Of a stretch of DNA of 64,000 bases, positions 2,956 through 53,061 are shown one piece after another. A model generated the notes under the pieces. It worked only from the letters and a program-made list of their open reading frames with translations. It did no database searches and was not told the origin of the DNA. Position 1 is the stretch's first letter. Each line of letters begins with the position of its first letter. The translations under genes were made by a program, and so were the position numbers. Location: assembly GCA_030248215.1 (NCBI GenBank), contig JASANG010000443.1, forward strand, positions 310,001-374,000, read 5' to 3'. This DNA comes from Enoplolaimus lenunculus. Lineage: Eukaryota.

Positions 2956-3923
2956 TGGTCTGTAAGTTCAAGGGTAAACAAACGACCTCCGATGACGTAT
3001 AAAAGATAACGTTTCATTTCATTCAAGTAAGAAATACAAAAAAGTTTTTGTTTAACTATTGTTCACAAGCTCTTCAACTACTTTAACTCGAAATGTTAAT
3101 ACTATACTTGACACAGTACCGAAAAAGACAGAATTCTGGCGTAGGAATTCCATTTATGGCCGGACTCGGAACATAAATTTTGCCGGACTTTCAGTCGAAA
3201 ACACAATTCCGTTGGAACACTGCTATTCCGGATGCAAAACAAACAGTAAAACTGTCGAAAACAGATATTAACGTTGAACGAACAATTTCAGCATATCTGT
3301 GAACAAATCATTGCGAGATATATACGTGATTTATAGCTAATTTTGAACGTAAAATTAACATCGTTTCTGTTTCCGTTATTAAGTTCTTTATTTTTAATAT
3401 ACCTTTAAAACTTGAGTATATATTCTGCTATGAATATAGGCAACATTATACTTTGAGTAATAAATCGAATTTTGTGCTAAACTTAATTTCGGCCAGGAAG
3501 CATTTACGCAATCTACGCTCATTATGGACTGATTAGAAATTGTGGACTCTGTCCATGTACGGACTCTCATTACGAAAATAGACTCCTACTGACTCATATT
3601 CAAAACAGGGGTCCCAGATTCTATACGACCGCCCCCCCGTTATTCGGGTAACTGTCTGAACCAATTTTGGATGGTTTTAACGTTAATAGGCTAGCGGTAT
3701 AAACGTATTCAATGTTAACAATAAATAATTTTGTAATTTAGCACTCAGTTACCCATTCCCACAACCCGAAATTGTTTATCGGAGAAGGCAAGAAGATTTT
3801 CAGATGCAAGCAAAAAAATTTTCTAAACTTAAAATTTATAGTTCAATAAATCTCTGCCATGGGTAGGCGAAGCCTTACGCAGCGAAAGCAGCATCCCCAT
3901 ACCCCCTTATAGTTAGAACAAAC

Positions 3924-4115: not shown

Positions 4116-5641
4116 GAAAAAGCTAAACGACCGCAGTATGAAATTTGATCGCAGCAAAGCGATACGATACGTTTAATATTGACTGGTTGGAAGCCAGCAA
4201 TTTCTAACCAGATGACTCTAAAACCAGTTACTTTTGCTATCATCCAATTATTTTTTTCACAGTAACCTAATCCGAATAGCATGGACGTGGTTATTTGTCC
4301 ATGAATATAGCACGATGCGACTATGATTTCATTTCGAAAGCGTGTAAAACTGCACCAACCACAGAATTTTTAGGTACAGCGATGGCAGAAAGCGAGAAAA
4401 CATTTTAGATTTTAGTAAAAATTGAGTCAAAAACGCTATTTTAAACACTTTTCACGCTTAAAATAGCATCTTTCAAAATGTTTTTTGTAAGTGTAACCAA
4501 ACTCTGAAATGTTCAGCAATCATAGCTTAACGCCAGGGTGCAACGGAAGGTGAAAAATCAACAAAATTTGCCGGATCCGGATGTGAAGTCGGAAGTGAGG
4601 AAAATTAGGCAGTTAAACTGTTAAAATGGGGTCGAATTTGTTTAATTTTAGCAAATGGCTGTAATGAGTAGGTATTTTTACGAAATCTCGGCAATTTTTT
4701 GCTCAAAATTGTACCACAGGTTAAAACGAAACACCGTCAAACAGATAAATTCTGTAAAACTATGAAAAATGTCATTACTGAAATTGCCGAAACCTCCGCC
4801 AAAAAATTCTACAGGAACCGGAGCCGGAGGTCGAGTTTACTGTTGCCTGAGTCGGAGTCGGATGTAGACCTCCGGTTGTACCCTGTTATAAGCATAACTT
4901 TCCTCAAGTGTATCCTACCCATCCAAGTTGTCAGTCTCTTCCATTGTCCAAAAGCACCCTGTATTCAACTCATTTATCGAGTTAGTTGTTTCTGAGTTAA
5001 TAACAATAAGCATTAACTCACCCTGAGTTGAGATGATTTTCACTCTCAGATGATTTACTTCTGGATACGTTGATGAGTTAACTCAGAATCAATTGAATCA
5101 ACTCACAATTCTGAGTTCTGATAGTCCTAACTCAGAGTGATTGATTTAACTCATTCTGAGTTAAAATCAACTCGCTGGAATTCACAGTGTAACGAATCGT
5201 ATTCATGGCAATTGCTACACTGTAAATTTCAGTCAGTTGATTTTAGTTCAAAATGAGTTAAACCAATCACTCTGAGTCAGGACTATCAGAACTCAGAGTT
5301 TTTAGTTGATTCACTTCGTTCTGAGTTAACTAATCAACTCAACCACAGTCAACTCAACTGAGAGTGAGAATCAACTCAACCCAGAGTGAGTTAATGTTTA
5401 CTCATATTAATTCAGAAATAACCAACTCGTTAGGTGAATTGATTAATCAACTCTTTGGAATTTACCGCGACTTACGATTCGAAGAACCAATAATTGTTGG
5501 TGATAGTTCAACTCTTCGAGAACTCGGTAGTTAAGTTTTATATACTTTTCGGATATAAAACTAAACCTTAGATTTAATTTTACAACTATCCAGCTGCGAA
5601 GCAGCCACAAACTAGTAATGACAGGAGTGAAACTTCTTGAA

Positions 5642-6313
5642 CACTGCAAATTCCAGTGAGTCGATTTTAACTAAGAATTCTGATTTAATTAATCAACGCA
5701 CAGGGAGTCGACTCAACTTACAGTGAGAATCAAGTCAACTCACAGTGAGAATCAAGTCAACTCACAGTGAGTATCAAGTCAACTCACAGTGAGAATCAAT
5801 TCAACTCACAGTGAGTATCAAGTCAACTCACAGTGAGAATCAAGTCAACTCACAGTGAGAATCAAGTCAACTCACAGTGAGAATCAAGTCAACTCACAGT
5901 GAGAATCAAGTCAACTCATAGTGAGAATCAAGTCAACGCACAGTGAGAATCAAGTCAACTCACAGTGAGAATCAAGTCAACTCACAGTGAGAATCAAGTC
6001 AACTCACAGTGAGAATCAAGTCAACTCACAGTGAGAATCAAGTCAACGCACAGTGAGAATCAAGTCAACTCACAGTGAGAATCAAGCCAACTCATAGTGA
6101 GAATCAAGTCAACGCACAGTGAGAATCAAGTCAACTCACAGTGAGAATCAAGTCAACTCACAGTGAGAATCAAGTCAACTCACAGTGAGAATCAAGTCAA
6201 CTCACAGTGAGAATCAAGTCAACTCAAAGTGAGTTAAAGTTTACTGTTAATAACTCCGAAAATAACTAACTTTCTGTCTGAGTTGATTAATTAACTCATT
6301 GCAATTTACAGTG
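5642..6313. mobile_element. CACTG-terminus MITE, family B, expanded by an internal 22-bp tandem array
   Basis: CACTGCAAATT...AATTTACAGTG ends with AA TSD. Unexpanded ~250-bp copies at 29775-30030 (AA TSD), 41560-41811 (TA TSD), 40644-40898, ~36091-36346, 45458-45708 and 45711-45967. Confidence 0.8.
5719..6232. repeat. 22-bp minisatellite (CACAGTGAGAATCAAGTCAACT), ~23 copies
   Basis: Near-identical head-to-tail units with period 22 and no spacers. Confidence 0.95.
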
Positions 6314-7108
6314 AAAAGGTTGTTCAATGTTATTTTCACTCCTAATTCTTTTCGTCCAAGCTCGCTACAGGTGGGGCTATACTGGCCGCGCGCTGGCACG
6401 CGACACGAAAAACCTTTTATTAAAAAGTCTGCCAAATAAATTTTGCCAAAATTGTCTTAGCAACGCATAACAGCGTTCGGTGTCGCCCGGCGACGTGCGG
6501 CACAGTAAAGTATACCACAACCCTAACAGTCAAAAAGGAAAACTCAAACAAAAATCCTTGATTACAAACCGTAAATGCAAATTTTTTAATCAAAATAAAC
6601 CCCAATTGTGATTCGAAATACAGACCCTCTATTTTAATTTTGAGCGTCTTAAAATATTTGACAGTCTAAAATTTTTGATTTATTCAACCTAGCGAACTAA
6701 TGATACCTAATTAACTTTTCATCATAGCAACGGATTAGGCTTTTGCCAGGGGTTTTTATTTTCAACCTAGTAATTTTTAGGTCAAATCTACTTAGACCAA
6801 ACGTGGAACACCACGAAAACCCTATGTAATTGCTGTGTGGACAAAAACCTACAAAACATAAATATAGCATTTTTGGTTTATCTGGTTTATATTTAGCGTT
6901 GAAACCTGTTTGGTTCTGGCAACATTTACGTTTTTAGGTATATATACCCGAGAGGCGGCTGAAGAGAATGCTTAGGTTCTCGCTTAGCCTTTAAACTCGC
7001 CTTTTAGGCGTAGGTTCTAAAACAGGCTTACACCTGGCAGTGGGTTCCAGCTTTAGGAGTAGGATAGGGCTTATTTTTGAGATCAAACATTAAGTAAGGG
7101 TAAAGGTA

Positions 7109-7548
7109 CTGTAGTGACCCGAATAAGAGGGGGAAATAAAGGGGGTCCCCATATTGAGTGCCAAACAATAGGAGTCCGTATCCTTAATAAGAGTCCGTAA
7201 GCCAATAGAGTTCTTAAACCCTTATTAGAGTCCATAAATGTCAATTATTCCTAATTTTGGCGCATAAGTGATTCGAGGACCAAATAAAGTTGAGTTCGAA
7301 ACTTTAAAGCACACTTAACTTTTGAAAGTACATTCCTAAGTATATCCTTGTATTATGGCTCAATAGCTTTGGATACAAGACAAATACACAATTCGACGGA
7401 TAGTGTCAATACCCGGTATATATTAGTAACAAATGGCGGCGCGCCGGGCGGGTTAAAAATAAATAACAGTCCGTAACCGAATAACAAAGGGGGAACCCTC
7501 TGGAGGGGCCAAATATATATCAGTCCCCTCTTATTCGGGTCACTACAG
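7109..7548. mobile_element. TA-flanked MITE (Tc1/mariner-like)
   Basis: Perfect 24-bp TIR CTGTAGTGACCCGAATAAGAGGGG with TA on both sides. Partial copies at ~3530-3650, ~32490-32728 and ~63100-63141. Confidence 0.75.
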
Positions 7549-7733
7549 TACGACCTGGTATTACAGATCGGCTTTTGACATAGGTTTGAACTCAGACTTT
7601 AGGTATCGTGTTAAAAATAGAACGCTAATTTAAACGCGTTTCAAAGCGGAGAAACTCTAAAATGAATCGCGTTTGCATCAAAACGGTAGTAAAATGCTTT
7701 TTAGTGTTTGTCAAAACGATATTTTAGTATTAA

Positions 7734-7995
7734 CCCTTTCTCACATGAATATTTTCTATTTCTCCTGAGACCTACTTTTATGCTAGGATTTAAACTCCAG
7801 TGACTGGAGTGGGAGGCGTATACCATCACCACTCAGCTATCGGAGCTTGACGCTCGAGCCCGAGGGGCTCTCACGTCTTGTGGTGATTTAGTACTATGTA
7901 TATGTGCTGCAATTGTTAAACACGGTGCGATATATACTATTTAACGTATATACACTGCGCTGAGTTGCCTATAGGCAACTCAATGTGAGAAGGGG
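7734..7995. mobile_element. Non-autonomous piggyBac-like MITE
   Basis: TTAA|CCCTTTCTCACAT ... ATGTGAGAAGGGG|TTAA (13-bp TIR, 1 mismatch); 22-bp perfect palindrome TGAGTTGCCTATAGGCAACTCA at 7961-7982. Confidence 0.65.
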
Positions 7996-9737
7996 TTAAT
8001 ATAATACGCTTTTTTACAACGCGAAAAGCGTTTTTCCCACGATTCCTATTAGGGTACGGCATTTAGGATAAGGTTTGGTTCCAGGTTAATGCTTACGCTT
8101 AAATTAAGGACCGGACTAAAGCGGTTATTCGAGACTAAGGTCCGAAGTACGGTTACCCTTAGGTTTTAGCTTGTGTTGAAGCTTGACCTTAGGCTTCCTT
8201 TCTAAGCTCGTACGCGCAAATGTGTGTAACATCTATCGCCAGTTGGTGAAAGGTCTTGTAGCTTTCGTATCTACCAGTAATGAACGTTGAGATTCCAAGT
8301 TCAACACATTTTTATTGCATTTGATTTGCTCTACTTCTGTGCCATCGTAAGATCCACACTTGCAGGAGTATGTCCTTTTGATCCCGTATCGCTTAATGAT
8401 GGATGCAACTGTTGCGACACGAATAAGAGGGGAGACTGATATTAATTATTTTGCCTCTATAGAAGCCTATACTTCTGTGTTATTTGGTTACTATACGGAT
8501 GTGGTTGCGTCCGCCGTCCTGTGGGTAAACGAAGCTTAGATTCTGATTCCCGGGGAGTCAACGAGTTGAGTGCGGGGGGATGTTTTCGCACGCAATTAGA
8601 AAAACAGAATACCGGAGGGGACACTGGAGGCGTCGTCACTGATCTGTGCAATCGTCGTCCGGTGAGCCCCGAGCCTGTAAAGTGCAAAACTTGAAGGTCT
8701 TCGGTCGAGAGACCCCGGTTGCAGCCTCACCTGGCTCGGCCGAAGCTCTATTTTCCATCTAATAAGTTTAAAAGTAGCTGAGAGCGGGCAGCAAACTTTC
8801 CGTCTATTCCTTTTAAACTTATAGTTACTGACTGTTATTTCTTCTACTTTACCGCAGTTGGATCTAATACTTTTCAATTTTGCTCCGAACAATTCTCGTT
8901 GGCTGCCATGCCTGTTAATTTTTCACGGTATTTAATAACGTTTATTCGGGTTGTCTGAGTATCTGTTACATATCTGAGCTGAACAACAAAGGTCATTCTT
9001 TCGCTTTCATCTCTTATGCACTGCCAAAAATGGTGAGTCAAGTTGAGTCTCTCGGAAGTAGGCTTTTCGGGACTACGCAAACTGAGTCAAATTCGACTCC
9101 GCCAGAGTCAAACGTGCTACTCTAGGTGAGTCGAATTTGTCTCTGGCGGAGTCGAAATTGACTCAGTTTGCGTAGTCTCGAAAAGCCTATTTCGGACAGA
9201 TTGAGTCAATTTGACTCACCATTTTTGCAGTGTGGACTATAATTAAAACTTATGGATTCTATCTACTAACGAACATTTATTACAGATACAGACTCCTATT
9301 GATAAGGACTTAACATAGGAATGAAATGTTTCAGTTTTATTCGAATCACTGCTATACATTCATTTGAGAATATGTACCAAAGTTTGAGGGATCAAATACA
9401 TGTGCACTGCAAAAAATGGTGAGTCAAATTGACGCTTTCCGAGATAGGCTTTTCCGGACTACACAAACTGAGTTTAAAATTCGACTCTGCCAGAGTCAAA
9501 TTCGACTAACTGAGTCTCTCGATAAGTCGAATTTGACGCTGGTGGAGTCAAATTTAACTCAGTTTGTGTAGTCCGGAAAAACTTATTTCGGAGAGAGTCA
9601 ATTTGACTCACCACTTTTTTGCTGTGTGCCAAATTAAAGTCCAACCCTATGGCGGTTGATTTCTAAAATTATCTATGAAAAACCGCTTACTTTTCAGCAC
9701 TAAAATTTGAAAATTTAAACTTTCAACTAAAGTTAAT

Positions 9738-10880
9738 ATGAACAACCATGCCACAGACGAGAATGTTGGCATCAAAACAAAGAAACGATTTCCGATCAAA
9801 TTCAGTCCAGCAAAACGCATTGAACCTAAACGAAAATCAGGCTCAATCACACTTTACCTGGCATCATCACCAGATCCAAACCACACAACCGGTACTATAA
9901 CCGACAAAAAGCCTAAACCTAAGCCTAAGCCTAAATGCTTTCAACTTTGGCTGCAAAACGCGTCAAATAATGACTGTGAAATACAGCGGCGTTCAAACCC
10001 GCGGCGATCTTACATCCCATGCAACTACACCAATCTTCGTCAAAGCCTGCTTGCCGGAACTCTCCTTATTTCGGCCATGTGTGGCCTCATAGGCCTCAGC
10101 CTTTGCCTAATCGACGGCGGGCAGTATGTCGGCATTGCGGTTTACCTCATTTTAACGGCTGCAGTTGGCTTCATTCTTTCAATTTCATTCTGCCTAGTCG
10201 AACCCGATAACCCGGTCCTCAAAAATCTACTCTTCCGGCGACAACCAAGCAGTGGCAACGAATCGTCCGGAACGGAACATCCCGGAGGCCCAAAACACAA
10301 TTGTGGCTCGGCTCAAGATTGCCACCTATCAAATAGCGATACGTTTCCTGATTTAAGCCCTAAATTGAGCCATAAAGCCTCATGGTACCCTGACCAACCG
10401 TTATCAGCATACGTCAACGATACTTTATTAACTGCAACTCGAATGAAAGGACGCCTGTGTAGCATTCGTCGACAACCGAGCGTCAAACTCGGCTTAAATC
10501 CAGCTCAATCTACTCAGTCGAAAGTCGCTGCCTCTGCAGGAACAACTCTACGCCGATCGCTAGACCAAGCTAAAAAACTGATCGAAGAGCAGCAACCTGA
10601 CTCGGAGCAATTTTCAACTCGAATTAACTCAGTGACGCCAACGACGTTCGAAAACGCTTCGGCCAGCCATCAGGACCCATCGTACCTAAATCAAAGTTTA
10701 AAACTCACTACGAAATATTCTCTGCCAATATCGACCAATTTTATTCGACCACCGAACGAAGCCTACAGAACGAGAACGCTATGTCTAAATTTGGGATCGA
10801 CAAACGCGTCTAAATTAGAAGCAATTCGAGAACGATGGTCAGAGCTTTCGACGACCCCAACAGCGGAAGTTGGAGAATAG
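9738..10880 (+). CDS. Hypothetical 380-aa protein with two predicted TM helices and a Ser/Thr-rich tail
   Basis: 1143-bp uninterrupted ORF, more GC-rich than its flanks; hydrophobic segments LLAGTLLISAMCGLIGLSLCLI and YVGIAVYLILTAAVGFILSISFCLV. No family recognised and the true start is uncertain. Confidence 0.55.
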   Translation: MNNHATDENVGIKTKKRFPIKFSPAKRIEPKRKSGSITLYLASSPDPNHTTGTITDKKPKPKPKPKCFQLWLQNASNNDCEIQRRSNPRRSYIPCNYTNLRQSLLAGTLLISAMCGLIGLSLCLIDGGQYVGIAVYLILTAAVGFILSISFCLVEPDNPVLKNLLFRRQPSSGNESSGTEHPGGPKHNCGSAQDCHLSNSDTFPDLSPKLSHKASWYPDQPLSAYVNDTLLTATRMKGRLCSIRRQPSVKLGLNPAQSTQSKVAASAGTTLRRSLDQAKKLIEEQQPDSEQFSTRINSVTPTTFENASASHQDPSYLNQSLKLTTKYSLPISTNFIRPPNEAYRTRTLCLNLGSTNASKLEAIRERWSELSTTPTAEVGE

Positions 10881-11445
10881 ACCAAGGAAAACTATGAGGA
10901 TATCTCAGGGTGTAAACGGATAGTGAAAACAACGGAAACGGCTGCTGATTTAAATAACGAAAACGGATATTGAAGTGTGAAAGTTTCAAAAATGCTATAT
11001 TTTTCTCCAATTTGGAGAATAGACCAAGGAAAACTATGAGGATATCAGGAGTAACAAATAAAAATAATGGAAACGAATACTGATTAAAATAACGGAAACG
11101 GAAAACGGACACTGAAGCATAAAAGTTTCAAAAATGTTATATTTTTCTCCAATTTAGAGAATAGACCAAGGAAAACTATGATGATATCAGGGTGTAAACG
11201 GATAGTAAATACAACGGAAACGGATATTGATCAAAATAATGGAAACGGAAATCGGATATTGAAGCATAAAAGTTTCAAAAATGTTATATTTTTCTCCAAT
11301 TTAGAGAATAGACCAAGGAAAACTATGATGATATTAAGGTGTAAACGGATAGTAAAAACAACGGAAACGGATATTGATCAAAATAATGGAAACGGAAATC
11401 GGATATTGATGTATTAAAGTTTCAAAAAATGATTTATTTTTCTGC
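10871..11445. repeat. ~142-147-bp tandem repeat, 4 copies
   Basis: Unit begins T(G/A)GAGAATAGACCAAGGAAAACTATG at 10871, 11013, 11155 and 11302. Confidence 0.85.
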
Positions 11446-12019
11446 AAACATAAGCGAGGCGTGCATAATATCTGTAACAAAAAATTGCGATGTATTTTTT
11501 TAAATTGGACGAATTTCGTAATTTTTATTTCATTTCAAACAATTGAAAAACGAACAAAAACCAAAACTAATTTTGAACGTAAAAATAAGACAATCTCCGT
11601 TATTTCTATAACAGAAACGGACTTCGATTTTTACCGGAAACGGATATCCGCTTACATTTTGGAGTATATAAATGATGATTAGCAAATTTCATTTCCGTCC
11701 ACAACTCTGCAGGCTAACGTGAGCTGCATATATTATATATTCTTTCCAACTATTTTCGTTCATTGAACTTTGGGCCGATGTAAAGAAATGGGGCAGAACA
11801 GTATTATAAGCATATTCCTAAGACTATAAGCCTAAGCGACTGAATAAATATATTCCCAAGCCTAATAAGCGACTGAATAAATATATTCCCAAGCCTAAGC
11901 TAAACAAAAAAATAAGTTTAAAGCTTAACCCTCAACGGCCCGGCAAAATTTTCACCTTAATCAGCCCAACGGTCTACATATGTAGACAACACAACTAGCG
12001 TTAGTTTTGGCTTATCTCA

Positions 12020-12083
12020 GGGTGCTCTCCTCCTTTAACTGGCTTGAGACAGTCAGAACTAGTGTTCTGGCGGAGTTCCACCC
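12020..12083 (-). ncRNA. Predicted twister self-cleaving ribozyme (type P1, with P3 stem)
   Basis: Minus strand reads GGGUG GAA CUCC GCC AGAAC ACUA GUUCU G ACUG UCUCAAGC CAGU UAAA GGAG GA GAG CACCC. P1 GGGUG/CACCC, P2 CUCC/GGAG, P3 AGAAC/GUUCU, P4 ACUG/CAGU, pseudoknot T1 CUC/GAG, T2 GC/GC; catalytic A and G positions present. Hand alignment only. Confidence 0.85.
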
Positions 12084-12122
12084 GCTCCCCGTCCAGCCTC
12101 CCACTGCGGGCGCGTTGTCCAG

Positions 12123-13829
12123 TTAAGCACAGTCGTTGCACGTTATGGTGCGATTCATGTGGTCCTTGCACACTCGTTTTCCACATGACGAACAGCTCAA
12201 TCTCGTAGATTTGCGACAACTTGTGACCTGACATTTGGTCGGTTTACCAGATGTAGAAGGTTCGTTTCGCTTTTGAGGCAGCCCGTAAGCCATAAATGAA
12301 TCCTTTGATTTTGCGTAAATTTTTTCACTGCTGTAACGTTTGGTCATATTGTCTTGCGCTAGTTGTTCGGCTACTTTTTTCATGAAAACATTGCGTGACT
12401 TTTGATATCCGTTCAGTTTCATGACAATGAATGCGTTGTGCAACGCAATATCAATCATATTGAAAAAGCAGACTAGAGGATAACGATTCGTTTTGCGTTT
12501 GCAGGTAAAATCATCAATGCAAGAGTCCATTACATCAACCCCGCCTTTTCCCAAATTATAATCCAAGATAACTGCTGGTTTTTTGTCCTCTCTGCTGGTG
12601 CAAACTTCGTTTTTCACATGAACTGAACTTAGTAATAGCACATTTTTATTTTTCTTTGGACAATAAGACGCCAACATTATGCGGTTATTGTGGTCCCATA
12701 AAAATCGGGTGCTATAGACCTCTTGTTCTTTTGTTGACTTTAGCACCGGAGGTACGCTGCGGCGATTTGCCATTATTGTGCCTGTGCACGTTAGCCCACT
12801 TTGTAATAGGTCCACAGCCAATTCATGGGATGTGAAATAGCGGTCCATGAAAATGTTTCGCTGAGTGTTACAGTATGGTTGAATAAGATCCATTACGATG
12901 CGTTTAGCAAGCCCTACGGCCCGTTCGCCTTCACGCCCTGTATAAATATTTCCTTTTAGGGCATATCCATTCCGAGCATCGCAAAGCCAGAATATTTTTA
13001 CGCCGTACTTAGCAGGTTTCGCCGGCAGGTACGCTCGCCCCGGTGCATATCCTCTATACCCGTAGAGCTGTTCATCTACTGTAAGTGATTCGGACGGTAT
13101 ATAATGAAGACGTAAGTTGGACTGAAATAGGTCCCAAACATCTCGTATAGCAGCCATTTTGTCACTTTTTTGACGCTCCCGGCGAGTCAGTTTGTTGTCG
13201 AATGTTACATTTTCCAGCAACTGTTTCATTCTGTTTTTTGACAGCGCGCAGCGGTAAAAGGGCCTGCTGTCGTTTTTGGTGAATAGTGAAGCCACTGGAG
13301 ACATGTTATCGCGATCTGCACCAGCTCTGATTACCACCCCAAGCCAAGCTTTCAGCTCGCACATTGGTAGCGTTGAAAAATTGCGCGCCCGCAGTCGCCT
13401 ACTAGTGAGACGCTGAATTGTATGTAAAATGGGCTCGTTTATATAAAGATAAAATGGTTGTGACTCTGTTGTAGGGTTTACTGCAGTGCCTTCGCGAAAG
13501 CGAATTATATTTCTAGCTAACACACGGACAGGCGGTGTTGTAGAATGCCACTCAACACCCGTCGCTGACAAAAACACATTACTTCCACTAGAAGTCTCGT
13601 CCATATCGCTCAACTCACTACTAGATGCGTCCGATTGTTTTTGTAATTCACCATCACTATCTTGCTCATAAATAGCAGCCTCTTCACTACTGCATTGACC
13701 TAACTCAACTGATTCTGAGTCGTCATTTGAACTATTGTCGTACGGTTTGTCATCTTCTGTCTCTGAATCACTTGGTTCTAATACACGTCGTACGACTTCA
13801 GTCAAAGATAATTTATGCAAACCTGACAT
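12123..13829 (-). CDS. piggyBac transposase (PGBD family), 568 aa
   Basis: Acidic Ser-rich N-terminus; catalytic Asp motifs TVDEQL, MDRYF and GGVDVMD; KPAKYGVK motif; C-terminal Cys-rich domain CQVTSC...CSSCGKRVCKDH...CNDC; no stops or frameshifts. Confidence 0.95.
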   Translation of the reverse strand: MSGLHKLSLTEVVRRVLEPSDSETEDDKPYDNSSNDDSESVELGQCSSEEAAIYEQDSDGELQKQSDASSSELSDMDETSSGSNVFLSATGVEWHSTTPPVRVLARNIIRFREGTAVNPTTESQPFYLYINEPILHTIQRLTSRRLRARNFSTLPMCELKAWLGVVIRAGADRDNMSPVASLFTKNDSRPFYRCALSKNRMKQLLENVTFDNKLTRRERQKSDKMAAIRDVWDLFQSNLRLHYIPSESLTVDEQLYGYRGYAPGRAYLPAKPAKYGVKIFWLCDARNGYALKGNIYTGREGERAVGLAKRIVMDLIQPYCNTQRNIFMDRYFTSHELAVDLLQSGLTCTGTIMANRRSVPPVLKSTKEQEVYSTRFLWDHNNRIMLASYCPKKNKNVLLLSSVHVKNEVCTSREDKKPAVILDYNLGKGGVDVMDSCIDDFTCKRKTNRYPLVCFFNMIDIALHNAFIVMKLNGYQKSRNVFMKKVAEQLAQDNMTKRYSSEKIYAKSKDSFMAYGLPQKRNEPSTSGKPTKCQVTSCRKSTRLSCSSCGKRVCKDHMNRTITCNDCA

Positions 13830-15948
13830 TTCCCTGACTTTACCTCACCATACAAAACCGTGTGTAAGAACAAAACGTTCCAATTCTTGTCAAAACTCAA
13901 ACTATGATCAAATCAACATCTGTCTACATATGTAGACGGTCGGGTTATATAGGTATATGACTCACTGTACAGCAAACTTTTGTTCCCACAATGCTATAAG
14001 TTTTTTATACTACTATAACAGAATAATTATCGATGGAAATTAAACAATAGATTCTAAACTATAGCACCTGCCGAACAATCAATTGTCGAACTGGTTATGT
14101 CTACATATGTAGACTGTCGGGCCATTGAGGGTTAAGCTTACTCTATTCTGGGCCCACAGAAAAACGTTCCGCCCCTGATTTTTATGGGCCGAACTTTGTG
14201 ATGAATTGATAAAATGGCCCATGCTACTTTAAGGGGCGTCCAGGTTTCGGATGGGTCCATAAAAGAGTAGGTTTTGATTCTAGACTACATTTTTGCTTAG
14301 GGTTAGGATTAGGCTGCACTCATTTTTGCAACGCCATGTCTAACCATCATTTTTACTACATAAATTTCACCTCACCTCCGTCTCCGGCAAGTTTCGTTGA
14401 CCTCCGGCTCCGGTATTTTTCACCTCCGGTTGCACCCTGGCAACTAGCGACTTCTACAAATGACAGTAACATCACATATTGCTCAACAATTTGATATGCT
14501 TCGATCCCTTGAGTCACTAAAAGTTATTTTATCAATAAGAATCAGCGCAAGCAGCTCAGAAAACCACACACAAACTCAAAAAGTTTATATAAAAAATTTA
14601 CAAACTTCCTTACAAATTTTAACCAACTTGATAATTAATGCATATTATTCATAAACCGTGGCATTAACCCATTAGTACACAGTGTGTGAACACCAATGTT
14701 ACTTTAGCATAAACCTAAGCGTTAATAGGACTATAACCCATACACAAGTCTAAACCAGACGCGTAAAGATTTGCCTGAATGTAACGTTCACTATACAGCA
14801 TCCACACGAAAAACAAACGCATCCAAAGGTTTGCGAGCTCCTAACTTTCGAAAAATCATTTGTAAGTACAGCATAAACCCTATTAGCTATTTTGACATAA
14901 CACAAAAGTACTTCGAATCCTATTTAATAAAAGCTGACATGTCCACGACTCGTAAGTGACCCATGTTACTTTTAGGGCCGCCCCAGTTTCTGTTGAGTCT
15001 GTAAAAGAATATCTTACATTATAAACTACATTTTTTGCTTAGGCTTTGGCTTAGGCAGGCTTAGGAATACGTTTCTGCAACGCTTAGGCTTAGACATACG
15101 CTTAATCTGCTGTTACTGCCCTAAAAGTAACATTTGCCATCTTAGTTACTCCACATTGAACCAAGTATTCAATGATGCTACGATTTCATTACAAAAACCA
15201 CAACAATAAGAGCAGGTTCACAACCATTCATTCATAAATACAAAAATCACACCATTTTAACGATACTTGGATATTAAAAAATAATATACACCAAGATCTT
15301 ATACGAAGAATCACAAAAAATAGAAAGACTAATAAAAATAAAAACACATACAAAACAAACAGCAAAATAATGCAAAAATGTCAATATATTTTCAAAATAA
15401 ACACAACAAAATAAAATCCCTTCTTTTAGTTCTGAGGAGCGACCGGATATCAATTTGCCGGACTTAATTTTTACCGAAACCGGATCTTAGCCGGATATAA
15501 CATTGGAATTTGTGCACTGTTGGAAGCAGCTGAGTTCACAAAAGAATAAGTTTTCTCAATTAAAAATTCATTGTTAGCTTGGACATTTTATTTTTGACTT
15601 CAGTTTGAAAAACCCTGAACTTCTTAACTTGCCCGGAAATGCAATCGCAGCAAGGTGATAAAATGTACACATGCAGAAAGCGTTTAATGATCTTAAGACC
15701 GCAACCGTAATCATCCGGTATTCTGTAGGTTTATGCCGGATACCAGAACCGAATATGGATATTGTATTTTTGCCGGATACTAAAACCAGATATCCGGTAA
15801 ATACCTGCTGAACAGTCTTGTAACTACAATAATCTGAGTTCCTCAAATAAAAAATTATCAAATTAAAGTATATAAATTAGAGAAACTGTGACTGGAATCA
15901 TTGCACCAAAAATCAAACTACCAGAATGTCTCGTCCAATTGCGCTACA

Positions 15949-49936: not shown

Positions 49937-52560
49937 CTACAAATACGTCACCAATTCTCCGTCATCGTCTGTTTCATTGTTGAACTGCTCGCCTTCGACC
50001 ATTGTTGTTTCCAGCGAATATTTCGTTGACGATTTTTCATGTGGCGATCCAATTCCGTCCGACGACACTGCTTCTGACGATTCTTCAAGCGAGCTTTTAT
50101 CGTCATGATAGCCAGATTCGTCCGAAATCGCGTCTACGTTATCAACTGTGCCGTCACCAGCAGCAGCATTAGATGGTGCAACATGCGGCGATCGTTGGCG
50201 TATAACACTTGTAAAGGTTATATTTCGATCGAGTGATTTATCAACGTAGTCGCCTTTTGTCGTCGGTCGTTGGCGAATAACACTTGTTAGGGTTACATTT
50301 CGACCGAACGGTTTAACGTCGCGGGCGTCGTCAGGCGGTTGTTGGCGAATAACACTTGTTAATGTAATATTTCGATCGATCGATTTATTACCACTAGCAT
50401 CGTCACTGCTGTTTCGCCTATTGACTGGAGTCAGTGTTGGCGAAACGTCAAGATCGACTGCGTCTGGCGAACAATTGCCAATGCAGTTACATGAAGCGCT
50501 GGTTGTAATTGCATTATGCATGCAGTTGCAATCAGTACCATATTGCAACTGCAGTTTGCGCTCCAATTCTGGCGAAGTTGACGATTTCCAGGTACTATGT
50601 GGTTCAGGATACTGCTGGGCGGTAGTAGTGATCGCTAGCTTAGAAAACGCTTCTTGGAGCCGTGTTTTAGCACAATCTGGCGAATCGCGTTCGGTCAAAC
50701 CAGGACTTATACTGTCTGGGATGGAATTTGATGGATGGATTGGTAAATAATCGTAGAAATACGAGTAGTCTGAGCTTTGAGAGCTGGGAAATTTTTGAGA
50801 CAGTACAACTTGATGCGATGATGCGTAGTCCGAGTCATTCGTTTGATGACGGTGTGTTGCGATCCAGTCGGAACTATGTGATCTAGAGCAAGCGGGCATA
50901 TCAGATGAATGGAACCATACGGAGTCATTGGGATCAGTAGGGATCGTACCGCGTAATTCACAACTCGTCTGACGGTTGTATGGCACTTTTTGTTTTGGAA
51001 ACACTTTGGCGTATACTGGCGGCTCTCGGAGATGAGCGATCGCGTTTGGCTGCTTGGGGATCGAGTCGAAAGCACCAATGCTTAGCTCGTTAGCCAAGAA
51101 TGATGTCTTTGCTCGATATTCCACACTTTCATTCAGTTGTATTTCAGTTGAAGTTTGGTTCGGCGTTTGGTTCCCGTAGCTACAGCCAGTTGGGTTATTT
51201 TTTAACTGGAGCGATTCAGCACTTACTCGAGCCCGCTCCGCTGAAAACTGCTCGGTAGCACCCGGGGTACTTTCAAAACGAGCCTGGCTAAGACTATCCG
51301 GTTTCTGCATCAGGTTTGCGGTATTTGCGTCAACATTCGGGTAGCCAATATCGTAACCTGATGGACGATACCCAGCTGGCTCGGCTACGGGTACAACAAT
51401 GTCGCGAGGGTCAACGTTTTCGTTCACGCTCGCGGCATCACTGTCGCCGTCTTCCTCTTCGATCGAACAGAGACGCGGTGCGCTCTTTGATCGTGTCATT
51501 GGAGGACGAAAGTTCGCTGCGCCAGTTGATAGCATCGCTTTGCGCGCTGGCAGCCGACCACCGGTCATACCAGCACCGCTAAGCGTTGCTGCAACTGTCG
51601 ACCGAACGTTCTGACGGGCAATTTTCTCTCGTCGGTACTCGAGCAGCGCTGCGCTGACTTGCTCGCTAAGCTGACGAGCCATCAGCGCTGGCTGCTCGAG
51701 ACGTTTGGTGAGCGCCGCATGGCAACGAAGCTCGGGTTTCATGCGTTTGCCTAAAATTTTAAAACAAATTTAAAATTTAATATTTTTTGAGAATTTTTTA
51801 CGCAAATTTATAGGATATTTTTCAAATTTTCATTTCGCAAATTGATGGAGTTTAGTTGCTAGTTTACAGCTTGAAATTTTTCTATTAATACTTCATATAC
51901 ATATTCAGAATATGGAGTAATGTAGAGAAATTTCCAGCTTTACACATAAAAAATATAAAAACAGCTTAGGAAACCCAGGGGGACGACGACGCTGGACCCC
52001 CCTCGTACATAAATCAAATGCACAAACGAATTTACGCATTCGTCTGTTGGCAAATCCAATACAACCAGTCATTTTTACTTATCGCACATTGCATTTATTA
52101 GTTCACATCTAAATTTGAATTTTTGAAAAATTCGATTTTTTTGCAGAATGAATTTTACGTTGAACTAACCTTCATGTTTATAAATCCAAACGAACACCCG
52201 TTGATAACCCGGCGGTGCGCAACAAAACGTAATCCGATGCGCCCAATATTCGGTCAGTCCTTGCGCTTTTGTATAAGCCTTGAGGCCTGATCGGGTAACA
52301 ATTAGTCGCATAGCGATTTCTGGTTGAGGGGGTGGCATCGTTGATTGTTTTCGACCCCCCTGGCTAGCAGCAGCTGCAGCCGCGGCAGCTGCTTTTACAT
52401 TATTACAGTAAGTTCGCCAAATAAGCGCGAGCGGCTTATCGTAGCACCCATCACCTTTAGCCAACGGGGTTACCACGTTGCCAAGGTAGACAACATTATA
52501 AACTGGATCCGGTTCATTCAGAACAAACTTCCGTTTCCGGCGTCGCCAGAATAGAGTCAT
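49937..52560 (-). CDS. FAM43A: FAM43-like PTB/PID-domain protein, 2 exons, 734 aa
   Basis: Exon 52170-52560 (donor GTTAGT) plus exon 49937-51750 (acceptor TTTTAG), phase 1. Motifs DPVYNVVYLGN, AKGDGC, HRITFC, VFVWIYKHEG-KRMKPELRCHA match my recollection of the FAM43 PID domain; long disordered C-terminus. An upstream exon cannot be excluded. Confidence 0.85.
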
Positions 52561-53061
52561 TTTGATGCTTGGTTCCGGAACTGCGATAGATTTTACTGCA
52601 ATCTTCCCAAGTGTATTATTAAGGTTTAGTATTTAAACGTAGATTAATTAATGATATACACAGATACAATACTGTTACATCAATATTTTGTTTCTAAATT
52701 AGCTGAAATTTTATTGCCAAAATTTTTTTCACCAATTGTACCTTTATTGTTGGTACAAAATGGAAGCCGACACTTATACAAGTCAAGTTCCGTAAACTTA
52801 GGGTTGCGCTATACTTTCTTTGTGCCGCACAGCGCCGCACGTCAACGCGCCGTTTGGGGCCGCCTTTAAAATTTGCTTTTTGACATCAGACGCGGCGAAG
52901 CGTATGGCATCCGGATTGCAGTTAAAACTTCAAAAACTATATTAATTTGACGATTTGAATGTTTACCAGCACCTTGCATTTATTAATGAAACGCTTTGAA
53001 ATTACAAAACAGCAGCAGAAATGTGTTTGTTGGTGTAACTTGACAAGCCAAAATTTGAGCC

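Follow-up and report, generated by a model that had tools for sequence, protein, structure and literature searches.

A type-P1 twister ribozyme motif in the 3' UTR of a piggyBac DNA transposon

The element and the motif

The window (the whole stretch of DNA analysed here, 64,000 nucleotides of contig JASANG010000443.1 from Enoplolaimus lenunculus) contains a full-length piggyBac element on its minus strand (Table 1). The transposase matched PF13843 (E = 4.7e-57) and the T. ni piggyBac transposase (6x67; E = 2.2e-67). The three aspartates D252, D329 and D435 were invariant in 50 of 50 aligned proteins, and the last 43 residues, with seven Cys and one His, form a Cys-rich C-terminus that aligned with those of relatives. 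The DDD triad, the TTAA duplication, the inverted repeats beginning CC and the Cys-rich C-terminus place the element within piggyBac and bear out an earlier note on this DNA, which had described it as intact. Because the transposase ends level with its relatives, the motif described below sits in a 3' UTR proper, which is 194 nt long. The element is inserted in another abundant repeat; in three public DNA runs, 425, 387 and 224 contigs ran from 14132 into sequence resembling the other flank, and a joint skips 11822-14132, as would be expected of empty sites. An origin in a synthetic vector was rejected, the transposase being distant from T. ni piggyBac and the natural repeats being covered by public runs.

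Within the 3' UTR, the minus strand from 12083 to 12020 aligned with the Rfam twister-P1 model (RF03160) over model positions 1-68 of 68 and scored 52.6 bits, with an E value of 3.1e-11 when a 301-nt stretch was searched and of 6.7e-9 when the whole window was searched. All 24 named pairs were Watson-Crick, 19 of 19 in the helices and five of five in the pseudoknots T1 and T2. The helices were P1 (12083-79/12020-24, 5 bp), P2 (12075-72/12030-33, 4 bp, CUCC/GGAG), P3 (12069-64/12054-59, 6 bp) and P4 (12053-50/12038-41, 4 bp). T2 comprised two pairs (12071-70/12042-43) and T1 three (12048-46/12025-27, CUC/GAG), with A12045 and A12028 (A-A) in place. The catalytic and conserved bases A12077 (A+1), A12076 (A+2) and G12029 and the L4 adenines A12045 and A12044 were all present. 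The earlier note had called a twister of this type from the letters alone and had proposed a covariance-model search; the full-length alignment and complete pairing uphold that call, although the match lies under the gathering score. The pairing scheme it had written down also holds for every helix and pseudoknot, except that P3 has one base pair more than was written.

The stop codon TAA occupies 12125-12123, and the first base of the motif, G12083, is the 40th base after it. The motif is in the sense orientation, and the cut that had been proposed between 12078 and 12077 agrees with the consensus alignment, its coordinates being confirmed at 45 nt downstream of the transposase stop. In twisters the bond on the 5' side of the conserved A is cut, which gives the upstream piece a 2',3'-cyclic phosphate and the downstream piece a 5'-OH.

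Table 1. Positions of the element, its parts and the ribozyme motif within the window
Feature	Position	Strand	Basis
piggyBac element, full length, 2,203 bp	11929..14131	-	inverted repeats, TTAA on both sides, element-free contigs of the flanking repeat in three runs
TTAA target-site duplication, 5' side	14132..14135	.	sequence
TTAA target-site duplication, 3' side	11925..11928	.	sequence
5' terminal inverted repeat of 17 bp starting with CCC, 2 mismatches against 3' copy	14115..14131	-	
3' terminal inverted repeat	11929..11945	+	sequence
Subterminal 16-bp palindrome, copy 1; likely transposase-binding site	14099..14114	.	same palindrome at both ends of L001
Subterminal 16-bp palindrome, copy 2	13922..13937	.	
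Subterminal 16-bp palindrome, copy 3	11972..11987	.	
Transposase ORF (568 aa) with an acidic N-terminus, D252/D329/D435 and a Cys/His-rich domain at the C-terminus	12123..13829	-	
Type-P1 twister ribozyme motif, including P3	12020..12083	-	Rfam alignment, pair check, descriptor
Predicted scissile bond between G12078 and A12077, with A12077 as general acid	12077..12078	-	Rfam consensus alignment; roles as in the available text of PMC11662667
Predicted general-base G, first base past the P2 3' strand	12029	-	Rfam alignment, pair check; available text of PMC11662667
GC-rich hairpin adjoining P1, P0-like, predicted	12084..12113	-	minimum-energy folds

The score of 52.6 bits is below the RF03160 gathering score of 67.2, which is the curated Rfam cut-off, and a default Rfam scan at that threshold misses the motif. 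We regard this as a limitation of the model, because matches of the same subtype in phage all fell short of it as well: when 20 of 40 phage loci with a CUC/GAG T1 were submitted, 15 of the 20 matched twister-P1, at 42.8-54.9 bits. The motif is accordingly filed here as a putative twister by anatomy and not as a curated Rfam member. A strict twister descriptor found this one site in the window and none on either strand of 30 dinucleotide-shuffled versions of it. The plain folding energy of the motif was unremarkable (z = -0.50), as expected because pseudoknots are not scored. The predicted hairpin adjoining P1 ends 6 nt short of the 3' end that the cut would give the mRNA; in the available text of PMC6154101, such P0 hairpins are an optional part present in 21% of twisters. 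A match to the ar14 model on the plus strand (E = 0.63) was attributed to chance. Judged from its sequence, the motif is a real, well-formed twister in a previously unreported setting.

Subtype, relatives and copies of the motif

The earlier note had taken the CUC/GAG form of T1, in place of CCC/GGG, as a compensatory change arguing for a maintained structure. That argument fell: a scan of viral contigs gave 40 loci with CUC/GAG against 52 with CCC/GGG, the upstream P2/T2 strand being present as well in 37 of the 40. As a common natural subtype, CUC/GAG gives no sign of selection in the window element, and T1 compensation was rejected as proof of it; the form may be simply inherited from a donor. 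That the subtype is widespread supports a working fold. RAGATH-24 RNA lay directly 5' of the CUC/GAG twister pattern in phage loci L003, L004, L006, L009, L016, L023 and L041.

The base at position -1 was U in 71 of the 74 phage twisters that could be scored (18 of 92 loci could not), C in two, A in one and G in none. The earlier suggestion that G is tolerated there stood, since G at -1 gave an average fraction cleaved of 0.68, compared with 0.76 for controls, in the available text of PMC11662667. None of 93 phage matches carried the GGAG strand of P2, and CUCC/GGAG is found in S. mansoni twisters tabulated in the accessible part of PMC8501958; together these hint at an animal retroelement ancestry. 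A pair count in the phage alignment showed covariation in four of four P2 pairs, but the T1 covariation was built in by the search patterns and two P4 columns were mis-registered, and we count the covariation in this alignment as minor support only.

The transposase matched 563 proteins among 7,990 candidates, the best being 57-64% identical. In a quick tree it grouped with P0001 and P0002 (57-59% identical; support 98), within a clade of 24 proteins (support 99) that also includes L001, is known from assemblies only and is separate from T. ni piggyBac. Relatives with readable DNA were L001 (47% identical), L096 (35%) and L097 and L098 (30%), the last two being near-duplicates that were counted as one, which gives three independent relatives. 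L001, the one locus from 176 candidate stretches in the metagenome scan, is a near-complete element with the same 16-bp palindromes at both ends; the prokaryote genome scans returned 0 of 59 and 3 of 54 (L096-L098). Two loci from viral contigs (L002 and L095; 1 of 74 and 1 of 95) proved to be the same phage contig, with a chance-level match of 28%, and were discarded.

No Rfam ribozyme was found in L001, L096 or L097 at E values up to 1, and a custom twister model (R1), run unfiltered at E up to 10, had no match in L001, L096, L097 or L098; R1 includes the window sequence, and its 47-bit match to the window is by construction. With the ribozyme in 0 of 3 relatives, the twister is not needed for piggyBac function in general. 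It is apparently lineage-specific and not a general feature of the 24-protein clade. The earlier note had staked its case partly on recurrence of the motif, which is indeed present in the family copies among the run contigs but absent from all three independent relatives (30-47% identical). L096, L097 and L098 are piggyBac-type genes in bacterial metagenome-assembled genomes, possibly through host contamination of the bins, and the 3' region of L097 and L098 is GC-rich and repetitive.

The element was found in three DNA runs (X1, X2 and X3) from at most two samples. These do not represent independent support, because they belong to one study and one of them may be the source of the window. No RNA run containing the element was among the matching public runs. 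Long contigs within the element had depths of 6,133-10,761 in X2 and 1,408-2,622 in X3, with 0-2 differences, and the flank at 14565-14990 had depths of 39.9 and 10.8, respectively. This suggests a young family of roughly 10^2 near-identical, motif-bearing copies, a figure derived from contig depth, which is no copy number in itself. A loose end at 12893 in X3 resembles a library amplification adapter; this suggests amplified DNA, and depth ratios are to be read with extra caution.

High-depth contigs over the twister showed no differences in X2 or X3, and no substitution in 11935-12260 was listed among the run contigs; a 3-nt loss at 12027 occurred in three contigs, from X1 only (depth 590 of 52,616). 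Across the 2,203 bp, at least six differences were listed between the window copy and the bulk of the reads, and at that family divergence about 0.2 changes are expected in 64 nt. Invariance of the copies is therefore expected without selection, because the family is so young. The intact ORF and the near-identical, high-depth copies are indirect signs that the element may still be mobile.

A joint between 12445 and 13005 (depth 4,155 in X2 and 605 in X3) points to an internally deleted form, lacking 12446-13004, that appears common in X2 and seems to retain both element ends. Depth over the twister (about 11,000 in X2 and 3,000-3,500 in X3) was at least equal to that over the ORF, and full and deleted forms thus both appear to keep the twister. 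Among the contigs listed (498, 33 and 36), there was no second genomic setting of the motif at 80% likeness, except for a junction at 12038. At this point, in one contig each from X1 and X2, the element's 3' end gives way to unrelated sequence, possibly through a second insertion or a truncation; a TTAA lies within the twister at 12035-12038. Each of the three runs also has contigs whose likeness to the element is limited to roughly its last 54 bp (11935-11988) and ends before the twister is reached; two X3 records of this segment show 8-10 differences. These contigs appear to represent either piggyBac families related to this one or short derivatives, within the same genome.

Neither AATAAA nor any of 11 variant hexamers was found in the 194 nt between the stop codon and the end of the element, the nearest poly(A) hexamers being one within the ORF (12650) and two in the flank (11529 and 11438). 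AATAAA occurs at or after the stop in L001, L096 and L097/L098. Taken alone, a missing AATAAA over 194 nt is weak evidence; a search for literature on native piggyBac poly(A) signals found none. GC content was 62% from the stop to the end of the ribozyme, whereas the ORF had 43%, the 5' UTR 36% and the L001 3' UTR 34%; the other parts of the element and the L001 UTR span 34-45%. A GC-rich block so unlike the rest of the element suggests capture.

Simple retro-insertion, or descent from a twister-headed RTE of the T-variant kind, was not supported. P1 has its full 5 bp, the block is not bracketed by any direct repeat of at least 6 nt (12140-12070 compared with 12025-11960), and no endonuclease/reverse transcriptase body was found downstream: only 91 nt separate the motif from the end of the element, and the 64 ORFs covered, among 71 of at least 85 aa in the window, included no reverse transcriptase family. 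The complete P1 counts against a retro-copy because reverse transcription of a cleaved RNA would give a copy that starts at the cut, without the 5' strand. A GC-rich module of about 95 nt probably entered this lineage once it had separated from that of L001, and spread along with the element thereafter; its donor was plausibly an animal retroelement-type twister.

Predicted activity and possible roles

About 94% of tested natural twisters cleaved, and activity was sensitive mainly to pseudoknot mismatches and catalytic changes, in the available text of PMC11662667. The window twister carries none of the damaging pseudoknot or catalytic changes described in that text, and it probably has intrinsic self-cleavage activity. 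However, when upstream sequence was included, alternative folds beat the twister helices by 2.5-3.5 kcal/mol (pseudoknots uncounted), so that cleavage in context may be partial. In the minimum-energy fold, the P4 strands are paired with sequence around the stop codon, as might be expected if translation were coupled to cleavage, with sequence near the stop blocking the ribozyme until a ribosome melts the fold. Shuffled upstream sequence, however, reached the observed penalty in 111, 102 and 62 of 200 cases at three upstream lengths. The competing folds are thus no stronger than with shuffled leaders, and there is no sign of a designed switch; such a switch was rejected on these shuffles, and we consider translation-coupled control highly improbable.

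When a ribozyme lies in a 3' UTR, its cut takes away the poly(A) tail, and the mRNA becomes open to decay. On the geometry of the motif and on reporter results (the env9 twister caused a three-fold drop in human cells, according to the available text of PMC10761166), we tentatively favor a reading in which the twister is lineage-specific and likely active, cleaves the mRNA 45 nt downstream of the stop codon and so dampens transposase expression. As the element has no poly(A) signal, transcripts of each copy would run past its 3' end and rely on signals in the host, and the cut would sever the ORF from any downstream tail. Only the uncleaved fraction would be well translated, wherever the copy had landed, so that output would be lowered regardless of insertion site. 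The complete core features, the sense orientation, the missing poly(A) hexamer and the 62% GC block would all support dampening. Against it, a working ribozyme would be expected to lower the element's expression, but the family seems to have amplified strongly; the ribozyme's absence from the three relatives, the competing folds and G at -1, seen in 0 of 74 phage twisters, also weigh on that side.

Close behind dampening is an explanation that we hold possible though rather unlikely, namely that the twister is a tolerated passenger, captured by one founder, slow or often misfolded, and amplified by an active element. Its absence from 3 of 3 independent relatives, the GC-rich block that differs from the rest of the element, the rare G at -1 and the preference of 2.5-3.5 kcal/mol for competing folds all fit a passenger, and the family is too young for selection to show. 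Yet an insertion footprint is absent, with no direct repeat of at least 6 nt around the block, P1 is a perfect 5 bp, unlike a retro-copy of a cleaved RNA, none of the 24 pairs has decayed, and among the listed contigs no second genomic context turned up at 80% likeness, bar the junction at 12038. We think it unlikely that the ribozyme instead replaces the poly(A) signal, the cut forming the mature 3' end of a translated, non-polyadenylated mRNA freed from host read-through. This would account for the lack of a hexamer after the stop here when all three relatives have AATAAA, the family has amplified while carrying the motif, and the hairpin at 12113-12084, predicted to end 6 nt before the cut, would together with the cyclic phosphate protect the cut end. 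But 3' UTR ribozymes lower reporter expression in the available text of PMC10761166, and the hairpin is a prediction of a kind (P0) that is optional and found in 21% of twisters in the accessible part of PMC6154101.

More improbable still is that the cut serves silencing evasion or host insulation, separating the element's ends, preventing dsRNA snap-back and stopping sense read-through into the flank. In nematodes, read-through fold-back of Tc1 reportedly triggers transposon silencing, and a duplex of -57.4 kcal/mol is possible between the 72 nt at the start of the element and the 72 nt at its end, with the cut lying between them. That duplex, however, is short and interrupted (about 16 bp and about 21 bp), the cut would affect one strand only, and L001 has the same palindromic ends without a ribozyme. 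A bolder proposal, which we regard as doubtful, is that a clade of eukaryotic cut-and-paste transposons has adopted the twister as an mRNA 3'-end device that replaces the poly(A) signal and sets transposase dose independently of insertion site.

Known systems and surroundings

To our knowledge, the eukaryotic twisters described so far are linked to the RNA intermediates through which retroelements move. That purpose is closed to a twister placed in a DNA transposon's 3' UTR, which thus offers a clean test of a gene-regulatory role. The test system is simple: the element is 2.2 kb, one point mutation should kill the ribozyme, and reporter and excision assays are standard. If dampening is true, it would be a new kind of RNA-level self-restraint in transposons; if the ribozyme forms the mRNA end, the transcript would be a rare poly(A)-independent mRNA; and if it is a passenger, it would reveal a route for ribozyme spread without reverse transcription.

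The motif shares P1-P4, T1, T2, the conserved bases of L1 and L4 and the catalytic A and G with type-P1 twisters (RF03160), from which it differs in G at -1, a linker of 4 nt and not 5 nt after P4, its sub-cut-off score and its residence in a eukaryotic DNA transposon. In the available texts, T-variant twisters sit at the 5' end of Perere-3 and RTE non-LTR retrotransposons (PMC8501958, PMC7761336), truncated twisters occur at RTE 5' ends (PMC7761336), and twister-P1 is enriched in plant class I elements (PMC11933835). The Perere-3/RTE T-variants are, like the window motif, twisters on animal transposable elements with the same CUCC/GGAG P2. As described in those texts, however, they lie in the 5' UTR, set the RNA intermediate's 5' end and are often truncated at P1, whereas the window twister is complete, 3' of the ORF, without a flanking duplication and in a host element without an RNA intermediate.

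The element has the DDD triad, Cys-rich domain, TTAA target and short CCC ends of T. ni piggyBac (PDB 6x67/6x68) and piggyBat (9c0f), but differs from both in its 16-bp palindromic subterminal repeats, its 3' UTR ribozyme and its separate clade. IStrons (a group I intron with IS605/IS607) likewise make a catalytic RNA integral to a DNA transposon; as described in the available text of PMC13565253, they differ in being bacterial, self-splicing and spanning the whole element, and the window element is without a TnpB-like or guide-RNA part. The 3' UTR ribozyme OFF switches engineered in PMC10761166 have the same geometry in the part available, with the ribozyme between stop and poly(A) tail; the window twister is natural, on a mobile element, and its effect is predicted only. 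The component classes are both known, and it is their combination that is new. Full-text searches, largely of papers open without subscription, turned up no naturally occurring ribozyme either in piggyBac or in other cut-and-paste elements of eukaryotes, in agreement with the earlier note, whose author knew of no piggyBac case. The available text of PMC6765202 has no mention of DNA transposon or transposase, and literature joining twister, ribozyme and piggyBac appears, in the parts available, to be mostly engineering studies and reviews.

The repeat flanking the element (11500-11928 and 14136-14439) is very abundant, has a sharp end at 14439 and contains TTAGGC-like units; it carries a 33-bp duplication at 11833-11898, and pieces of it recur at many places in the window. 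TTAGGC, the nematode telomere repeat unit, forms 18 tandem pairs in the window. Long near-perfect palindromes at 2762-2938 and 5083-5324, with sub-threshold matches to plant miRNA models, are probably MITE-like repeats. Within 9738-11447, a 380-aa ORF with no Pfam match runs into a tandem repeat of four 147-bp copies and ends in its first unit. On the minus strand, an exon at 16638-16964 matches PF14008, the C-terminal domain of purple acid phosphatase (E = 8e-12), and 49937-52632 contains two exons of a PID_2 (phosphotyrosine interaction domain) gene.
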